From: an uncultured cyanobacterium
GTDB taxonomy: Bacteria; Cyanobacteriota; Cyanobacteriia; CAKZMO01
Assembly (NCBI GenBank): GCA_963719515.1
Contig: CAVRCJ010000011.1
Span: forward strand, 1 to 64,000
DNA length: 64,000 bases
Reading direction: 5' to 3'
Below the pieces are notes generated by a model, which worked only from the letters and a program-made list of their open reading frames with translations, had not been told where the DNA came from and searched no databases. Each line of letters starts with the position of its first letter. Position 1 is the first letter of the stretch. Positions 52,713 through 64,000 of this stretch are shown one piece after another. A program made the position numbers and the translations under genes.

Positions 52713-53522
52713 TCACTCTTCCCAGTAGACCTCCTCTGGAGTGAGGTAGCCTAACGCTTGATGCGGTCGCTCCCGATTGTACCAGTCAAACCATCTTGTG
52801 ACCTCCTGATTTAAGTGATGTCCATCCTCAAACGCCTTCAAGTAGATCAGCTCGTACTTGATAGAACGCCACAGCCGCTCAATGAAGATGTTGTCGTGGC
52901 AGCGACCCCGTCCATCCATGCTGATGGCAATCCCTGCTGCTGTAAGGCGCTCAGTGAATTGGTTTGAAGTAAACTGACTCCCCTGGTCCGAATTAAAGAT
53001 GTCAGGGGTAGCGTAGCGGGCAATGGCTTCCTCAAGCGCCTCTAGACAAAAGCCCACCTCAAGGGTGTTGGAGATGCGCCAGCTGAGCACTTTGCGGCTA
53101 TACCAGTCCATCACAGCGACCAGGTAGAAATGCCCCTTGAGCACCGGCAGGTAGGTGATGTCAGTGCACCAAACCTGATTTGCTTTGGCAACTTCCAGTC
53201 CCCGCAACAGGTAGGGATACACCCGGTGCTCCGGGTTCGCCCTGCTGAGTCTGGGCTTGGGGTAGATGGCCTCGATGCCTAGCTGCCGCATCAACCGCTG
53301 CACCCGCTTGCGGCCCACTGGGTAGCCCTTCTGCCGCAGCACGACCGCCATCCGCCTTGCCCCGTAGAATGGCGTCTCCATGTACTGCTTATCCAAGAGC
53401 AGCAGCAGCGTCAACTCCTCTTCTTGCGGCGCTTGTGGCTGATAGTAGTAGCTAGAGCGAGCAACCCTGAGCAGTTCGCACTGCCGGGCGATACTTAGCT
53501 GTGGGTGCTCTGCTACGACCAT
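52713..53522 (-). CDS. IS3 transposase OrfB (DDE)
   Basis: WCTDITY, NSDQGSQF, IERLWRSIKYE. Confidence 0.95.
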   Translation of the reverse strand: MVVAEHPQLSIARQCELLRVARSSYYYQPQAPQEEELTLLLLLDKQYMETPFYGARRMAVVLRQKGYPVGRKRVQRLMRQLGIEAIYPKPRLSRANPEHRVYPYLLRGLEVAKANQVWCTDITYLPVLKGHFYLVAVMDWYSRKVLSWRISNTLEVGFCLEALEEAIARYATPDIFNSDQGSQFTSNQFTERLTAAGIAISMDGRGRCHDNIFIERLWRSIKYELIYLKAFEDGHHLNQEVTRWFDWYNRERPHQALGYLTPEEVYWEE

Positions 53523-53833
53523 GGATTTTCGCTCCGCAGGCCCAGCTCTTTGGACTTGCTCGCTAAAAAATCTCGCTCTACCTTCAGCTGCCCTATCTGC
53601 CGGTACAGCTCGTCAATCTGCGCCTGGGCCGTGGCATCAGCTTTCGATGCCGCGCTGCCCTTCTCGAACAGACTGCTTGCTCCTTCCAATAGGCGTCGCT
53701 TCCAGCCGTTGATCACCGTCGGATGCAGCTGATGCTGACTCGCTAGCTCGGCGATCGTCTTCTCAGCCCGATTGGCATCGAGTGCCACTTTGGCCTTGAA
53801 CTGCGCGCTGTATTGTTTTCGTTTGTTGCCCAT
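53513..53833 (-). CDS. IS3 transposase OrfA
   Basis: RKQYSAQFKAKVAL, LYRQIGQLKVERDFL. Confidence 0.93.
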   Translation of the reverse strand: MGNKRKQYSAQFKAKVALDANRAEKTIAELASQHQLHPTVINGWKRRLLEGASSLFEKGSAASKADATAQAQIDELYRQIGQLKVERDFLASKSKELGLRSENPWS

Positions 53834-56600: not shown

Positions 56601-59222
56601 ATGCAGCCGACAAATCCTAACCAGTTCACGGAAAAAGCGTGGGAAGCGATCGCTCGGGTTCCTGATATGGCGAAACAGGCCCAGCAGCAGCAGATCGAAA
56701 CAGAGCACCTGATGCGATCGCTGCTGGAACAAGAGGGATTGGCCACCAGCGTATTTAATAAAGCCGACGTGCCCGTACAGAAGCTGCGGGACTTCACCGA
56801 GCAGTTCATCGCGGGCAAGCCCAAGGTCTCCGGAGCCTCTTCATCGGTGTACCTCGGGCGATCGCTTGATCAGCTCTTGGACCAGGCGGAAACCTACCGC
56901 AAGTCCTACGACGACGACTATATTTCTATTGAGCACTTACTATTGGGCTACGCCAAAGACGACCACTTTGGCAAGGCGCTGTTCAAAGAGTTCAACCTCA
57001 GTGAGAGGAAGCTCAAGGACGTGATTGACCAAATCCGAGGGAATCAGAAGGTGACGGACCAAAACCCAGAAGGCAAGTACGAAGCGCTGACCAAATATGG
57101 TCGCGACCTCACCCAGTCGGCTCGGGAGGGCAAATTGGACCCGGTGATTGGCCGGGACGATGAGATTCGGCGCACGGTGCAGATTTTGTCTCGCCGCACG
57201 AAGAACAACCCGGTGCTGATCGGTGAGCCCGGCGTGGGTAAGACCGCGATCGCCGAGGGTTTGGCCCAGCGGATCATCAACGGCGACGTGCCGGAGTCCT
57301 TGAAGGACCGCAAGCTGATCGCCCTAGATATGGGGGCGCTGATTGCCGGGGCGAAGTATCGGGGGGAGTTTGAGGAGCGGCTGAAGGCGGTGCTTAAAGA
57401 GGTCACCGACTCCGAAGGCCACATCATTCTGTTCATCGATGAAATTCACACCGTCGTCGGCGCGGGGGCCACCCAGGGAGCCATGGACGCGGGCAACTTG
57501 CTGAAGCCCATGCTGGCGCGGGGCGAGCTACGCTGCATCGGCGCGACAACGCTGGATGAGTACCGCAAGTACATCGAAAAAGACGCCGCCCTAGAGCGCC
57601 GCTTCCAGCAGGTATACATCGACCAGCCTACCATCGAAGATACGATTTCTATTCTGCGGGGGCTGAAGGACCGCTACGAGACCCACCACAACGTGCGCAT
57701 CTCGGACAATGCCCTGATTGCCGCCGCCACGCTCTCGACGCGGTACATCAGCGATCGCTTCTTGCCCGACAAGGCCATCGACCTAGTGGACGAAGCCGCC
57801 GCTAAGCTGAAAATGGAGATCACCTCCAACCCCGAAGAGCTAGACGAGGTCAGCCGCCGCATCCTGCAGATGGAAATGGAGCTGCGATCGCTGCAGCAGG
57901 AAACCGACGCCGGCTCCCTGGAGCGGCGGGAGCGCCTAGAGCGGGATTTGGCCAACAGCAAAGAGGAGCAGGCGGGCCTCAAAGCCCAGTGGCAGGCGGA
58001 AAAAGACATTCTGCAGCACCGCAGCGACCTGAAGCAGCAAATTGACCACATCGTCAATGTGGAGATTCCCGAGGCGGAGCGCAACTACGACCTTAATAAG
58101 GCGGCAGAGCTGCGCTACGGCAAGTTGACCGACCTGCAGCGCCAGCTGGAAGAAACTGAGTCAAAGCTGATGGACGTGCAGGGCACGGGATCGACACTGC
58201 TGCGGGAAGAGGTGACCGAATCGGACATTGCCGAAATCATCTCCAAGTGGACCGGTATCCCGGTGAGCAAGCTCGTCGAATCTGAGATGCAGAAGCTGCT
58301 GCAGCTGGAAGGTGTGCTGCACGAGCGGGTGATTGGCCAGGAAGAGGCGGTGACGGCAGTATCGGACGCCATTCAGCGATCGCGTGCGGGACTCTCGGAC
58401 CCCAACCGCCCCATTGCCAGCTTCATCTTCCTTGGCCCCACGGGCGTGGGTAAAACCGAGCTGGCCAAAGCCCTGGCGAGCTACATGTTCGACACGGAAG
58501 AGGCCATGGTGCGCATCGACATGTCGGAGTACATGGAGAAGCACTCGGTGTCTCGCCTGGTGGGAGCGCCTCCGGGATACGTGGGCTACGACGAGGGCGG
58601 CCAGCTCACCGAGGCCATTCGCCGCCGTCCCTACTCCGTGGTGCTGTTCGACGAAATCGAGAAGGCCCACCCGGATGTGTTCAACATCATGCTGCAAATT
58701 TTGGATGATGGTCGGGTGACCGACTCCCAGGGCCGCACGGTGGACTTCAAGAACAGCGTCATCATCATGACCAGCAACATTGGGTCGCAGTATATTCTGG
58801 ACCTGGCTGGCGACGATGCGCAGTATGACGAGATGCGCAGCCGGGTGATGGCGTCGATGCGCGACAGCTTCCGCCCTGAGTTCTTGAACCGCATCGATGA
58901 GATCATCATCTTCCACAGCCTGAAGAAAGAGCAGCTGCGGGAAATCGTCAGGCTGCAGGTGCAACTGCTGGCGCTCCGGCTGGAGGACCGGAAGATGACT
59001 CTGAAGCTGGACGATTCGGCGCTGACGTTTTTGGCGGAGGTGGGCTACGACCCGGTGTATGGGGCGAGGCCGCTGAAGCGGGCCATTCAGCGGGAGCTGG
59101 AGACGGCGATCGCGAAGTCCATTTTGCGGGGGGATTTCCGTGAGGGGGACACCATCTTTGTGGAGGTGGAGAATGAGCGGCTGGCGTTTAAGCGATTGCC
59201 GGCTGAGGTGGCGACGGTATAG
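56601..59222 (+). CDS. clpB: ATP-dependent chaperone ClpB
   Basis: [20 protein letters not shown]-domain coiled coil, [26 protein letters not shown]. Confidence 0.98.
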
Positions 59223-59229
59223 GTAGTTT

Positions 59230-59263
59230 AGAGCCCCGGGATTTTCGAAAATCCCGGGGCTCT
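59230..59263. terminator. 34-bp perfect palindrome between clpB and the convergent Uma2 gene
   Basis: AGAGCCCCGGGATTTTC-GAAAATCCCGGGGCTCT; second copy at 60188-60221. Confidence 0.75.
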
Positions 59264-59281
59264 GGGTTTTGGGTGCGATCG

Positions 59282-59872
59282 CTATAGCGCTGCCCGAAAC
59301 TGCTTTGCCGCTTCGAGCCGAGAGGTTTCAGCGACCAAAACACATCGGGCCAGTACTGAGATGTCTAGCGTCTTCAGCTCTGAAATTTCGCTGCGGTCGA
59401 TGGTTTTGTAGCCGCTGTCCCGCAGGCGATAGAGGCTAAAGACACCGTCCTGCCAAAACCAAACCTCGGGCACACCCAAGGCTTGGTACCGCGTTAGCTT
59501 CTCTGGGCCACCGCTGGTCACAATGACTTCAATGACCAGATCGGGCGTCGGTTTTGAGGTGCCGAAGCAGTAGGATTCATCGGCTTGGACGGAGACCTCT
59601 CCTTCGCGCTCTTGGGTCATCGACCCGGTGGGCTCAAACTCGATGCCGTTCTCTAAACAAAATAGCCCAATCAAAAAGCCGATCAGGCGGCTAAGCATTT
59701 CGTGCTCCCGTCCGGGCATGAGAATTTCGATGGTGTTGTTGTGGTAAGCAAGCCGGATGCCAGGAGACTGGGTGAACCCCGAGCGGATTAGAGTGAATTG
59801 TTGCCAGGTGATGCCGGCGTAAACGATGCGCTGATCGGCGGGAGCTTGGCTAGTGGGTGGGGAGAGCGTCAT
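59282..59872 (-). CDS. Uma2 family (PD-(D/E)XK) endonuclease
   Basis: ITWQQF, HE, ADESYC, PDLVIEV, YQALGVPEVWFW. Confidence 0.9.
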   Translation of the reverse strand: MTLSPPTSQAPADQRIVYAGITWQQFTLIRSGFTQSPGIRLAYHNNTIEILMPGREHEMLSRLIGFLIGLFCLENGIEFEPTGSMTQEREGEVSVQADESYCFGTSKPTPDLVIEVIVTSGGPEKLTRYQALGVPEVWFWQDGVFSLYRLRDSGYKTIDRSEISELKTLDISVLARCVLVAETSRLEAAKQFRAAL

Positions 59873-59994
59873 GGATAGATTTGAGTAAGTTGACGCGACG
59901 GAGAATGGGCGCGGTGGCGGGTGGATCTATCTTAGCGATTCGAAAGAAGGTCTTCCTAGTAGATCTCAAACGCCGGGAAGTCTGAAATCCCTTC

Positions 59995-60221
59995 GTAGGA
60001 TACGGCCCGGTGTACGGGGTGCGGCCTTTGAAGCGGGCCATTCAGCGGGGGCTGGAGACGGCGATCGCGAAGTCCATTTTGCGAGGGGATTTCCGTGAGG
60101 GGGACACCATCTTTGTGGAGGTGGAGAATGAGCGGCTGGCGTTTAAGCGATTGCCGGCTGAGGTTGCGACGGTATAGGTGATTCTGCAGAGCCCCGGGAT
60201 TTTCAAAAATCCTGGGGCTCT
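59995..60221 (+). repeat. clpB 3'-end copy 2 (183 bp to the stop) plus palindrome copy
   Basis: colinear with 59040-59222, from the V-G-Y codons to TAG at 60175-60177. Confidence 0.95.
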
Positions 60222-60247
60222 GGCGTTTAGAGTAGTGGACGTGAAAT

Positions 60248-60640
60248 CTACAAGTTCATTCGCTGCCGCTCTGCAATCCGGTCCTTAGTGTTGAACTTCA
60301 GCAAGTGGGCTGTAGTACGTCCTTCGGGCGTTTTCCCAGTAATCTGAGATGCTTCTAGGGCGAAGTGGCTCTCCCAAGTTTGAGTTCGGGGATTGAATAG
60401 GTAGCTAAACGCTTCGGTCTTGGGATCGAACGAACCTAGATCGCTGCCTTTATGCCGGTTGCAGCGCCAGCAGGCATAGGCGAGATTTTCTAGCGTTGTC
60501 TTACCGCCGTGCTTGCGGGCAATCACATGATCAATCTCGTGAGGGTAGAAGCTGAGGCTATTGGGCAAGCGGCAGTATTCGCAGCGATGATCGGCGCGTT
60601 GTTCAATTTGCCGACGCAGCGCTTCAGAAATATAGCTCAC
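60248..60640 (-). CDS. HNH endonuclease
   Basis: RCEYC, EIDHVIARKHGG, NLAYACWRCNRHKG. Confidence 0.92.
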   Translation of the reverse strand: MSYISEALRRQIEQRADHRCEYCRLPNSLSFYPHEIDHVIARKHGGKTTLENLAYACWRCNRHKGSDLGSFDPKTEAFSYLFNPRTQTWESHFALEASQITGKTPEGRTTAHLLKFNTKDRIAERQRMNL

Positions 60641-60990
60641 GATTCGCTAGCCGCTTCAAGGTAGGGCAGATTTCCCGTTTTGAGCAGGATGATCAGGTGC
60701 TCAATTTGCTCGTATTCGTCTAGCTCTTGGGACTCTTCTGGGGTGATTGTCTCTTCGACGCTGCGAGACATGAGATAGCCAAGACGATCCTGCATCTCTG
60801 GGGTGGGGCGAAATGAGGCGATTTGCTCGGGGGTGGGCTGGCTGACTAGGAAGTCTAGAATGTAGCGATAGGCTTGAGCAGAAAGGGCTGATGGCTGTAG
60901 GCAGCGGCGCAGCAGGTCGGGGAGCTGGTTTTGGATTGGGGCGAGGCGCTCCATTAGCTCGTCTGGAATTTCGATAGTTATTGTGGCCAT
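60637..60990 (-). CDS. antitoxin-like partner translationally coupled to the HNH gene
   Basis: MATITIEIPDEL...PTPEQI...ELDEYEQIEHL; GTGA overlap with HNH start. Confidence 0.7.
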   Translation of the reverse strand: MATITIEIPDELMERLAPIQNQLPDLLRRCLQPSALSAQAYRYILDFLVSQPTPEQIASFRPTPEMQDRLGYLMSRSVEETITPEESQELDEYEQIEHLIILLKTGNLPYLEAASES

Positions 60991-61059
60991 TGTGCTTGTC
61001 TCCCTAGGGCGATCGCCAATTCTTCTCACTGATGACGCAAGTCTCGAGAAAATAGCGCA

Positions 61060-61302
61060 TCAAAATAGCTCCGATTCCTGAGGCGGGAGAAGGTCCTCCC
61101 GGTAGGTCTCAAACGCTGGGAAGTTTGAAATTCCTTTGTAGGACAAGATTATCTCTGGCCATGTGGATGCTGAATCGGAAGATGGCTGGGTTATCTGACG
61201 CAGTGCTTGGAGAATCAAAGTTTGTAGCGATGTATTGGTTTCTGCTGCTTGGCGAATTAGATTCTGTTCGAGATCTGGCGGTAGATTGATGGTGATTTGC
61301 AT
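61060..61302 (-). CDS. small antitoxin-like (RHH) protein
   Basis: MQITINLPPDLEQNL...WPEIIL...FPAFE.YR. Confidence 0.65.
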   Translation of the reverse strand: MQITINLPPDLEQNLIRQAAETNTSLQTLILQALRQITQPSSDSASTWPEIILSYKGISNFPAFETYREDLLPPQESELF

Positions 61303-61310
61303 GGCTCGAA

Positions 61311-61532
61311 TTAAACCTCAAATAATGAGCGTGGTAGCTGTGATTGTCGGATAATCGATAGCAGCGTACCTGTTTTCAACTGCTTGTGATTGGGTACAGG
61401 GACTGTGATTGTAGTTTCATCCGTGCGTCTTTGCATGATGACATGGCTACCCCGCTGTCGAACTTGCAGAAATCCGTGCTTCTCCAATAGCTTGCAGACT
61501 TCTTTACCGGAGAAGGTTCTAAGCTTACCCAA
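61311..61532 (-). CDS. hicA: HicA family toxin
   Basis: SGKEVCKLLEKHGF..RQRGSH, VPVPNH..LKTGTL.SI. Confidence 0.9.
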   Translation of the reverse strand: MGKLRTFSGKEVCKLLEKHGFLQVRQRGSHVIMQRRTDETTITVPVPNHKQLKTGTLLSIIRQSQLPRSLFEV

Positions 61533-61752
61533 CAGCGACCTCCAAGCGGGTAATGAAGACCTCAGATTTTAGGCGAGCGGCAATTTCTGAAGGATCGGCA
61601 GCTTCGAAGAAGAGTTCGATCGCTTCAATTAAATTATTTCTGGCTTCTTCTACGGTGTCGCCTTGGCTAGCGATGTCTAGTTCAGGGCAGAGCGATACAT
61701 AGCCGTCATCTTCGCGTTCGATGAGTGCGGTGAATTGCTGTGTCTGTTTCAT
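61525..61752 (-). CDS. hicB: HicB family antitoxin (short form)
   Basis: IEREDDGYVSLCPELDIASQGDTVEEARNNLIEAIEL. Confidence 0.9.
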   Translation of the reverse strand: MKQTQQFTALIEREDDGYVSLCPELDIASQGDTVEEARNNLIEAIELFFEAADPSEIAARLKSEVFITRLEVAVG

Positions 61753-61798
61753 GGCTTACCTATATCGGGTTGAGGGCTGTCTTTTCGGTCGTTGAGGG

Positions 61799-62121
61799 CT
61801 AGTTGTTACCCTGCTTTCGCCTTATCTCTATTGCTGATTCTCTAATGGCTTCGGCAATTTCGCGAAAGGCTTCGTCTTGATTGTCCCCGGTGGTGATGGG
61901 CTGGTGGTTTTTGGGTAGGATGTCGAGCTGGCTGAAGGGTTCGCCGATGTAGTCTGTGGGGCGGAGGAGGATGGGGATGGTGTGGGCTTGGCCGGTTTTG
62001 TGGCGCTGGATGGCGGGTAGGATTTCTTGCTGGTAGCAGGTTTCGTCGGCTAGGGCGTCGGGGGTGATGAGGAGCAGGATGATGTCGGCGGTGTGGATCT
62101 GCTGGTGGATGGTCTGAGTGT
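61799..62121 (-). pseudogene. C-terminal part of a TIR_2 domain, no start codon
   Basis: manual translation TQTIHQQIHTADIILLLITPDALADETCYQQEILPAIQRHKTGQAHTIPILLRPTDY..PFSQL..LP. Confidence 0.75.
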
Positions 62122-62451
62122 TTATCTAGCGCGTGTTTTGAGGATTGTGAGCTGATCTGCTTTTGCCAACAGCTCGTCTAGCTCCGATAGCTGCTCAGAG
62201 GAGAGTGAAGATTCCGCGTTTCGGGTAATCTAGCTCATTTAAATGATTTTGTTCGGCTACTGCTAGCTTGCAGCTCGCTAAGGCTGTTAGTTCATCAATA
62301 CTCAGTCCAAATAAGCGATTTTCATCTGGCTCAGATCGCTGGGTAAGTCGAGAATAGGTGCTCCAATCGAGTACGACGCCTACGCGACTATCCTCCGGAT
62401 ACACTGCGTGAACACCATCCCGGTTGGTAATGTACTGAACTTGCTCAGGTA
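62122..62451 (-). pseudogene. degenerate antitoxin-like gene (start ATA, 24-nt insert, +1 shift near 62229)
   Basis: [12 protein letters not shown][insert]RVGVVLDW...GLSIDELTALA...LDELLAKADQLTILKTRAR. Confidence 0.6.
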
Positions 62452-62522
62452 TGGTAGGCCGTACGTACGGCAGGGTATCTTGCTATCGTAGCAAGCCGGA
62501 TAGAGAAATTGTGAGTGCTCCG

Positions 62523-62704
62523 GTGAGCTACAACCCGGTGTACGGGGAGCGGCTATTAAAGCGGGCCATTCAGCGGGAGCTGGAGACGGCGATCGCCATC
62601 TCCATTTTGCGGGGGATTTTTGTGAGGGGGACACCATCTTTGTGGAGGTGGAGAATGAGCGACTAGCGTTTGAGCGGCTTCCGGCTGAGGTGGCGACGGT
62701 GTAG
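62523..62704 (+). repeat. clpB 3'-end copy 3 (more diverged, 1-bp deletion)
   Basis: GTGAGCTACAACCCGGTGTAC...GAGGTGGCGACGGTGTAG; colinear with 59040-59222. Confidence 0.93.
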
Positions 62705-62995
62705 ATAGTTAAAAACCACACAAGACCTCAGTCAACGGCAAGACTATCTGTCTTCAATTTGGGCCAGTTATGTATACCCTTGAGTTAGAATCTCAAAGGT
62801 ATTTTTGTACTGACTTCCCGGAGAAGCCGCAGTTTAGTATATGACGAGAAATAAAATCGACAACTGGGGATTCCCGAATATTGAACTTGGGAAACCTCGC
62901 CATAGAATCAATGCTCTGGCTATTTCTAATTGCTAATATTGGCTTAAATGCTTTAATAGCAATTTAAGTTAAATTAGACAGTGAGGATATAGTAA

Positions 62996-64000
62996 GTGTT
63001 TTTATCCAATCGGCATCGCCGAGTTTTAGTCGCCAAACTGAACGTCAGAAATGAGGCAAATACGCCTTCTGATATACCAGCATACGCTTTTGATGACATT
63101 ACAAATATCATTAAAAGTGAAAGAGAAAGCAAATCTACGAAATTTTTATTCCAAGGGGATTCGAAGCAGATCAGAATTAAAGACATCAAAGAATTTAAAA
63201 ACGACAAAGAAATCTATATCTGCTTACTTCTAAGTCTTAGCGATAAAGACGCACCAAATGCGGTATACGAAGAATTTGATAGTGGAGAGGTTAGAAAGTT
63301 TTCAAAAGAAGAAAATGAGGGGAGTTCCACAACATCACATGTCTTAATTGGTCATTCATTAAATGATGCGAATTTATACTATTCAATCTTGATTGAAAAA
63401 GTTCCTATACTAACTACACCTGTTATCAATCGCTATCTAAATTCGCTTCTAAAGAACTCGTCCTTTCTAAAAACGTACAACAAAGAAAATGAGCGGAAAG
63501 CGTACCGTCCAATTTTTGAAATTTTAGGCCGTCAGTCAAATACTCTACGCCGAGCTTTAGAGTTTGGAACTGTTCAAGATATTGAGCTGGTTGCTCATAA
63601 GGAAATACGTCAGGGCTTTGACGAATACCCTTTCTTAAAGGAGCAAAGGGAAGAAATTAAGCTAATTGTACAGGAAAAAGTAAATCCTAGTTTTTTTGAG
63701 GATCTTATTAGAGAATTGAGGGGTAATCAAAGCTACTCAAGCTTTGAACATATGTTCGTACGCATTAAGGATGCTGAAGGAGATATAAGACAATCCGAGA
63801 TAGATCCAGATGTTGATTTCCTGGAGCGTACATTCATTCAGACTGAAATTTTGAGAGGCTTTGATCCTCCGCTTGAGCAAGCTCATTCTAGCATTCGGGA
63901 TGATGTTTTTTGTAAAATGATAAGCCTTATAGGTACACCTCCGAGAAAGGTAGCAGCCGAAAGTGAAAAGCCTAAAAAAGATGCTGGGGAAAATAGTAGC
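62996..64000 (+). CDS. AT-rich hypothetical protein of at least 335 aa, running off the right edge (absent from the ORF track)
   Basis: GAGGA RBS then GTG; manual translation MFLSNRHRRVLVAKL...LLLSLSDKDAPN...EGSSTTSHVLI...ILIEKVP... has no stop before 64000. Confidence 0.8.
   Translation, partial: MFLSNRHRRVLVAKLNVRNEANTPSDIPAYAFDDITNIIKSERESKSTKFLFQGDSKQIRIKDIKEFKNDKEIYICLLLSLSDKDAPNAVYEEFDSGEVRKFSKEENEGSSTTSHVLIGHSLNDANLYYSILIEKVPILTTPVINRYLNSLLKNSSFLKTYNKENERKAYRPIFEILGRQSNTLRRALEFGTVQDIELVAHKEIRQGFDEYPFLKEQREEIKLIVQEKVNPSFFEDLIRELRGNQSYSSFEHMFVRIKDAEGDIRQSEIDPDVDFLERTFIQTEILRGFDPPLEQAHSSIRDDVFCKMISLIGTPPRKVAAESEKPKKDAGENSS

Follow-up and report, generated by a model that had tools for sequence, protein, structure and literature searches.

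We describe here a gene end that has been duplicated and left behind downstream of its own gene. In a 64,000-nt stretch of DNA from an uncultured cyanobacterium (the window, by which we mean the whole stretch analyzed), the intact clpB gene is followed on the same strand by two dead copies of its last 183 nt, with small toxin–antitoxin and nuclease genes between them, and we consider it on balance probable that these dead ends were pushed downstream by ordinary homologous recombination of DNA carrying a clpB end plus cargo, without an integrase. The gain of such units adjoining clpB was likely serial and integrase-free, and the event belongs to a kind already described, insertion with long target duplication and rhs tip displacement, of which the locus represents a stacked variant. 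The window is the start of a 499-kb contig (C11) in a 5.28-Mb genome (G000) that is rich in the highly iterated palindrome HIP1 (1.47 GCGATCGC per kb), and the relatives of its clpB are cyanobacterial. Four genomes of the same genus (G001–G004) serve for comparison.

Three copies of the clpB end

The elements that carry the argument are the following.

56601..59222, plus strand: intact clpB, 873 aa
59040..59222, plus strand: 3′ tail of the live clpB, target of the duplication, starting V-G-Y-D-P
59230..59263: perfect 34-nt hairpin (z −8.89), likely a terminator or a repetitive extragenic palindromic (REP)-like repeat
59995..60177, plus strand: dead tail 2, true start about 60001, with three amino-acid changes in codons 1–24 and none later
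60188..60221: second copy of the hairpin, of the allele type found behind the live clpB of G004
62523..62704, plus strand: dead tail 3, with a 1-nt deletion, damaged over its whole length and with no hairpin behind it

By blastn, tail 2 is identical to the clpB end at 172 of 183 nt (E 6e-89) and tail 3 is 88% identical, with one 1-nt deletion (E 3e-61); no further copy of the last 183 nt was found by blastn in the 5.28-Mb genome. Measured start to start, the two units so delimited are 955 nt (unit 1) and 2527 nt (unit 2) long, and tail 2 stands nearer to the live gene than does tail 3 (10 versus 23 differences). An earlier note on this DNA had reported that the last 183 nt of clpB recur at 59995–60177 and 62523–62704, the first of these copies repeating the 34-nt palindrome and the other being more decayed, all of which is borne out. 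Its view that the palindrome forms part of every unit fails at tail 3, where the hairpin is missing.

The same note had the extra copies starting within about 6 nt of each other, which can be refined. Bases 59995–60000 belong to a 56-nt piece of a ribbon-helix-helix (RHH)-like gene (86% identical to 61088–61143), so that tail 2 truly begins at a Tyr codon, the equivalent of 59046. On the scale of the live gene, the starts are 59039–59040 for tail 3, 59046 for tail 2, and 59049 for a dead tail in G002 (see below), a spread of 10 nt. The DNA to the left of these three starts is unrelated from one to the next, and the joint of tail 2 shows a GTnGG microhomology. We considered and rejected the possibility that the flanks are themselves decayed clpB: the flank of tail 2 is part of an RHH gene, and the flanks on the Uma2 side show no alignment between G000 and G002. 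Two variants had been singled out as peculiar to the copies; TAC is so, occurring in none of three live-like alleles, and CGG is not, being the ordinary allele of G002 and G004.

These tails are not an assembly artefact, because a contig from another sediment metagenome (X2-12) spans 59838–60152 with 9 differences in 315 nt and independently bridges the tail-2 joint, reaching 163 and 152 nt to either side of it. The tail-3 joint is bridged by no metagenome contig among the matches listed, and an exact 35-nt tail pattern matched 0 metagenome contigs; the four metagenome runs come from one study. A misassembled repeat might be suspected from the relatives, whose contigs often end at the tail (G002:C37, G001:C710). 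Against this stand the independent contig, the 6–12% by which the tail copies differ, and the position of the window within a 499-kb contig, and we regard misassembly as having next to no chance of being the explanation.

Cargo and tails vary among same-genus relatives

In G004, clpB runs directly into the cargo of unit 2 (96% identity over 1312 nt, with 11 mismatches to G000 in the 400 nt after the stop), which amounts to an empty site for unit 1; its contig ends before the region that would show an empty site for unit 2. The HicAB pair of unit 2 is absent at the clpB site both in G004 and in a contig of metagenome run X4. The absence of unit 1 fits the proposal that units were added serially with the newest next to clpB, but gain in G000 and pop-out loss in G004 are indistinguishable from this comparison.

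G002 has an intact clpB on a contig ending just past VGYDP, and, on another contig, a second clpB copy (L031, G002:C239:44672-46426; L034) that is at least 1.76 kb long, 88% identical to the intact one, and marked by three stops clustered before VGY. The two copies become identical at the equivalent of 59037, and the long copy may be a second locus or a strain variant within the assembly. It is followed by 4.2 kb of mostly different cargo, which includes the same Uma2 gene (an 86% homologue of that in unit 1, adjoining the tail), and then by a dead tail starting at the equivalent of 59049, with 230 nt of downstream DNA likewise repeated. Within the genus, then, tails recur that begin at almost the same base and adjoin different cargo, as had been anticipated, and the duplication length is 183–230 nt, well over 30 bp. 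Protein searches of the 16 other genomes of the family gave tail-only matches in G002 alone.

In both G001 and G003 the assembly breaks off at the end of clpB, and G003 was uninformative. G001 nonetheless shows the hairpin, then a different Uma2 module starting at HIP1 (the position of 59275–59282), an HNH gene, and a whole NACHT-HEAT-TIR gene. Compared across four genomes, the cargo forms a patchwork in which 19 block junctions were counted. The clpB site is therefore a mosaic hotspot, at which cargo changes both with and without tails.

Mutations in the dead tails record exchange inside the tail

The dead tails (tail 2, tail 3 and the G002 tail) carry 6, 14 and 14 derived changes that are absent from three live-like alleles, and six changes to the same base are shared pairwise among them, a number reached in 0.00005 of uniform simulations and in 0.00065 of those keeping the 5′/3′ split. 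Two of the shared changes alter conserved residues (A to E in GARP, and E to G); some others may be synonymous alleles that were not sampled. In tail 2 and the G002 tail taken together, amino-acid or stop changes fall in 9 of 43 front codons (codons 1–24) and 0 of 72 rear codons (p 8e-5), and the rear 36 codons encode an identical protein in the live gene, tail 2, the G002 tail and G004. Damage confined to the front, combined with shared mutations, points to exchange inside the tail by homologous recombination; an integrase crossing at the 5′ edge is expected to leave an old tail that is uniformly young. The common 5′ start was, judging from these sequences, likely inherited by descent. The rear of tail 3 carries a G002-type allele.

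The place of that start coincides with a feature of clpB itself. Over the last 480 nt of 201 clpB alleles, the biggest upward step in conservation falls at the tail starts (59039–59049), with identity of 56% in the 30 nt left of 59040 and 74% to the right; this start marks the left-hand limit of the conserved GYDP-GARPLKR block, and alignments to unrelated clpB contigs set in at 59037–59043.

A proposed route for displacement

The incoming molecule would be a small circle, or a linear piece illegitimately joined at its far end, made up of the front of an older dead tail, the clpB end, the terminator and the cargo. It would presumably enter by natural transformation (ComEC is present in the genome) and recombine with the chromosome by a single crossover inside the tail, downstream of about codon 20–24. 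The live gene would stay whole, and the old end, joined to the old damaged front, would end up on the far side of the cargo. The 5′ edge would accordingly be passed on by descent and not set by a site-specific enzyme; its founding position was likely where pairing with a diverged clpB stops, at the left edge of the GYDP-GARPLKR block, and at other loci the illegitimate joint may often have been made at HIP1. The reverse recombination would release unit 1 as a 955-bp circle. This account draws on the copies, the cargo, the relative without unit 1, the lack of a linked recombinase, the shared mutations and the front damage of tail 2.

Several observations weigh against it. Were a circle simply inherited, the sequence to the left of the edge should come with it; instead, the three tails have unrelated flanks, which this account does not explain, and no circular intermediate was observed among the assembled contigs. 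Tail 3 has no front-to-rear polarity (4 versus 3 amino-acid changes), and live alleles also differ mainly in the front (5 versus 1 for G004 against G000). The polarity could equally have come from later gene conversion, itself homologous recombination. Inside the genus, identity to the left of the edge is undiminished (28–30 of 30 for G004), so that the conservation step can account for a founding event only. Finally, just two relatives are informative, both of them fragmented assemblies.

clpB tails in other cyanobacteria

Among 194 distinct clpB loci, tails were found at 8 of the 109 with at least 3 kb downstream; 63 further downstream regions (58 of them with at least 3 kb) contained 0, with three positive controls recovered, giving 8 of 167 loci overall. 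In a class-wide search of 401 genomes, the best 150 of 421 matches included 42 genomes with two matches each, which were full-length paralogues and not tails. Relative to the G of GYDP, the tails elsewhere start at −183, −59, +68, +99 and +135. The +135 start occurs at three Nostoc-type loci with one common flank and so represents one inherited event, the +68 start, likewise inherited, has the same flank in two Microseira genomes, and one Microseira locus carries both −59 and +68 tails. Microseira-type clpB arrays (L076, at 9840, 11345 and about 14913; L065, L180, L341 and L342) hold up to three tail pieces and dense toxin–antitoxin cargo. In Hormoscilla (L090 and L344), a 369-nt tail starting at CGATCG lies around a block of 7.6 kb, whose genes include one of 1323 aa and one that is cytosine methylase-like. 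We note in passing that at L050 clpB homology sets in sharply 572 nt ahead of GYDP and is preceded by a clpB-like piece of 70% identity; this may be an interrupted gene or a long tail. We found no publication on clpB tail arrays or clpB insertion sites in cyanobacteria in a literature search outside which most subscription journals lay.

HIP1 at tail starts and the same anatomy at other genes

The clpB locus is not the only gene end so treated in this genome: duplicated ends also occur at an ATPase-like gene, a hydrolase and an amidase, and less surely at three more genes. At the ATPase-like gene (L329:1625-2740, G000:C11:229624-230739), a 232-nt duplication surrounds one minus-strand Uma2 gene, the anatomy of clpB unit 1, and both tail copies start exactly at GCGATCGC. 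The hydrolase and amidase duplications (L330 and L331, G000:C18:13791/20138 and 33738/38427) enclose a 6.3-kb insert with IS1, where the joint spans CGATCG, and a 4.7-kb insert with NYN and PhoX genes, where HIP1 comes right after the amidase stop. A 169-nt repeat elsewhere (L332, G000:C19:49978/51793) appears to duplicate the beginning of a minus-strand gene and not its end; one of the joints has CGATCG. Across lineages and genes, the duplicated portion ranges from 45 to 369 nt, and it is near-constant within this genus. For three other tail loci of G000 the relatives supplied no empty site, their assemblies being too broken up or without the genes concerned.

HIP1 recurs at such boundaries. 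Four tails from Microseira-type loci, each with its own flank, start at one and the same in-gene GCGATCGC, and over all loci 7 of 17 gene-tail starts lie at HIP1 or its CGATCG core (p 9e-5 against a 7% background from this genome) or, counting the Microseira site once, 4 of 14 at CGATCG (p 0.014), in a tally made after the fact. Of the 18 low-copy local repeats of this genome, 7 show CGATCG at one or another of their junctions (2.8 under the null, p 0.015). At the clpB locus itself, HIP1 marks the start of the unit-1 Uma2 block (59275); the starts of tails 2 and 3 are not at HIP1 or CGATCG, none of the 201 clpB alleles has CGATCG within 15 nt of GYDP, and HIP1 is not significantly enriched at the ends of cargo blocks (2 of 19 junction clusters against a null mean of 1.08, p 0.29). 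As a separate observation, CGATCG stands at the same codon position (−58) in 94 of the 201 alleles.

In the parts of the literature on which we draw, the role of HIP1 is described as open, with links to excision, plasmid recombination and transformation efficiency (PMC4390886, PMC13756078, bioRxiv 10.1101/2024.09.10.611283), and HIP1-bounded rearrangements are summarized for smtB excision and plasmid recombination in PCC 7002 (PMC4390886, PMC13756078). The present loci resemble these in that joints formed in nature fall exactly on GCGATCGC or CGATCG, both at 59275 and in related loci, and depart from them at tails 2 and 3, which start elsewhere. Our search, with the coverage given above, found nothing on HIP1 at natural insertion breakpoints.

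Competing explanations

The unrelated flanks that trouble displacement by homologous recombination are what a fixed point of breakage would produce. On this explanation, a break or nick would occur at a preferred spot in clpB, one end would invade donor DNA and copy in the donor tail and cargo, and the other end would be rejoined by microhomology, so that each event would begin close to the break and have a flank of its own. The spot would be HIP1 in many cyanobacteria and a different site here, which a cargo nuclease might cut. The three unrelated flanks lying no more than 10 nt apart, the GTnGG microhomology at tail 2, the identity of the two G002 clpB copies from 59037, and the four flanks that meet a single HIP1 in Microseira-type loci (with one more at CGATCG in Hormoscilla) all fit, and double-strand breakage is among the proposals in PMC2853133, to the extent that we draw on it. 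But live tails that had only just been displaced would not be expected to have amino-acid damage in common, or to have it in the front only, CGATCG is lacking within 15 nt of the boundary in all 201 alleles, and the boundary shows no unusual DNA hairpin (z −1.0). We consider this explanation unlikely, and keep it at that level and no lower because three different flanks abutting one edge are otherwise unexplained. Doubtful as well is a single old duplication of the clpB end, followed by unequal crossing-over between tails, gene conversion and reshuffling of cargo, with unit 1 lost from G004. The shared derived changes, the mosaic cargo with its 19 junctions, and the variation of HicAB without a tail would follow from such a history, and the G004 structure is also what a pop-out would produce. 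Units 1 and 2 are, however, not copies of each other beyond the 56-nt fragment, at least two deletions would need to end within 10 nt of one edge, and the G002-type allele in the rear of tail 3 points to import.

Chromosomal integrons and integrative elements that target gene 3′ ends grow by serial addition at one end and carry a replacement tail. The clpB locus appears to share both features, and the earlier note had read it in this way, as an integron-like site with a fixed crossover; on such a model, V-G-Y would be an attachment site used by an integrase acting in trans. The near-constant start of three tails, the replacement-tail anatomy and a gene order fitting a newest unit adjoining clpB speak for that model. 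Unlike those elements, however, the clpB locus has no IntI or other linked recombinase, no attC and no precise crossover core. The note's statement that no recombinase is linked to the locus holds, as C11 has no match to PF00589, PF00239 or PF07508. Genome-wide there are one weak PF00589 (tyrosine recombinase) match on C10 and two PF07508 (serine recombinase domain) matches on C3 and C10, all on other contigs, and no PF00239 match; the profiles matched in 14, 12 and 2 of 14 control genomes (PF00589, PF00239 and PF07508, respectively). Neither IntI nor attI was found on C11, the attC pattern (RYYYAAC...GTTRRRY) has 0 matches on either strand in 59223–64000, and no crossover core or common att arm is present, with starts at 59039, 59046 and 59049 and unrelated flanks. 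A fixed crossover at the 5′ boundary is not supported: the polarity of damage puts the exchange inside the tail, and boundaries vary between lineages (five other start positions) and within one Microseira locus. HicAB, moreover, changes without a tail, and other genes have the same anatomy. The integron-like model is largely refuted already and, in our estimate, retains a slim chance. Because tail starts differ, −59 and +68 within a single Microseira locus included, one attachment site across cyanobacterial clpB genes appears unlikely.

Cargo of the units

The genes and fragments between and beyond the tails are listed below.

59275..59282: HIP1 site where the Uma2 block begins
59282..59872, minus strand: Uma2-family putative nuclease (PADLOC PDC-S17), cargo of unit 1
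59945..60000, minus strand: RHH-like antitoxin gene, 3′ fragment cut at the tail-2 joint
60248..60640, minus strand: HNH endonuclease (PF01844), putative nuclease
60637..61029, minus strand: small partner gene upstream of the HNH gene, with no family match
61060..61302, minus strand: RHH antitoxin-like gene, weak matches below cut-off
61311..61752, minus strand: HicA toxin and HicB-like antitoxin (HicB-like match below cut-off)
61810..62116, minus strand: TIR-domain fragment
62115..62496, minus strand: broken homologue of a 122-aa gene from the G002 cargo
62996..64000, plus strand: first gene of a two-gene block of 37% G+C (PADLOC candidates PDC-M53A/B), running past the window to 64559

The cargo families are those named in the earlier note (Uma2, HNH pair, antitoxin, HicAB, TIR fragment), with the antitoxin and HicB-like matches below cut-off, and the counterpart of the TIR fragment in G001 is the end of a 1275-aa NACHT-HEAT-TIR gene. 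Its description of the cargo as wholly minus-strand is true between the tails and fails in G001, in G002 and beyond tail 3. There the PDC-M53A/B block, a candidate defence system (L033:6997-8560, corresponding to 62996 to contig 64559), lies directly behind tail 3 and is followed by an ISAs1-type transposase, a DUF2281-PIN pair and a Uma2 piece, so that the variable region extends to about 67.2 kb. That the site accretes toxin–antitoxin, nuclease and candidate defence genes is supported. The units contain no methylase (Uma2 and HNH are the putative nucleases), no Rfam family was found in 56–64 kb, and the insertion sequence (IS) elements lie outside both units. At 52713–53833, 2.8 kb upstream of clpB, is what we take to be an insertion sequence of IS3 appearance with two open reading frames.

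Relation to known systems and implications

Insertion with long target duplication was reportedly described by Nobusato and colleagues in 2000. In the portion of Furuta et al. (2010; PMC2853133) that bears on this comparison, such insertions involve no other mobile elements, often span the stop codon and occur mostly in competent species by an unproven mechanism; one Microcystis case and one HNH-only (mcrA-like) case are included. The clpB locus is alike in its small inserts (under 20 kb, without integrase or transposase) between direct repeats of more than 30 bp that span the stop, in the intact gene, and in the empty site of a relative (G004, for unit 1). The published cases are single inserts of restriction–modification genes with variable duplication lengths, whereas the clpB locus has at least two stacked toxin–antitoxin and nuclease inserts with nearly one start and no methylase. 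Since no restriction and modification genes are present in the insert, we class it as a variant and not a strict member; the Hormoscilla block stands nearer to the published restriction–modification cases. Displacement of rhs C-terminal tips, in the relevant part of Jackson et al. (2009; PMC2935791), proceeds via a circle and a homologous crossover, and for arrays of type VI secretion system (T6SS) effectors, Kirchberger et al. (2017; PMC5361080) propose, in the section concerned, homology-facilitated illegitimate recombination and contrast it with integrons. Common to these systems and clpB is a same-strand string of displaced gene ends downstream, the newest proximal, with no integrase. In rhs, the payload that varies is the C-terminus itself and the core fragments are of different lengths, whereas at clpB the protein end is constant and only the downstream cargo varies.

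The locus shows how hotspots of defence and toxin–antitoxin genes can build up downstream of an essential gene with no mobility gene involved, and it warns that a common boundary alone is no proof of site-specific recombination. We raise, tentatively, a broader possibility: a dead gene end might act as a self-propagating arm, with sub-kilobase circles of tail and cargo popping out, re-entering other strains and building toxin–antitoxin and defence arrays, and with HIP1 as the preferred founding joint. If this were true, the clpB locus would offer natural, base-exact HIP1 joints and a 955-bp circle. The HIP1 joints, several of which arose independently at a single site, are relevant to what HIP1 does, a question 30 years old, and would, on that account, matter more than the displacement of clpB ends itself.

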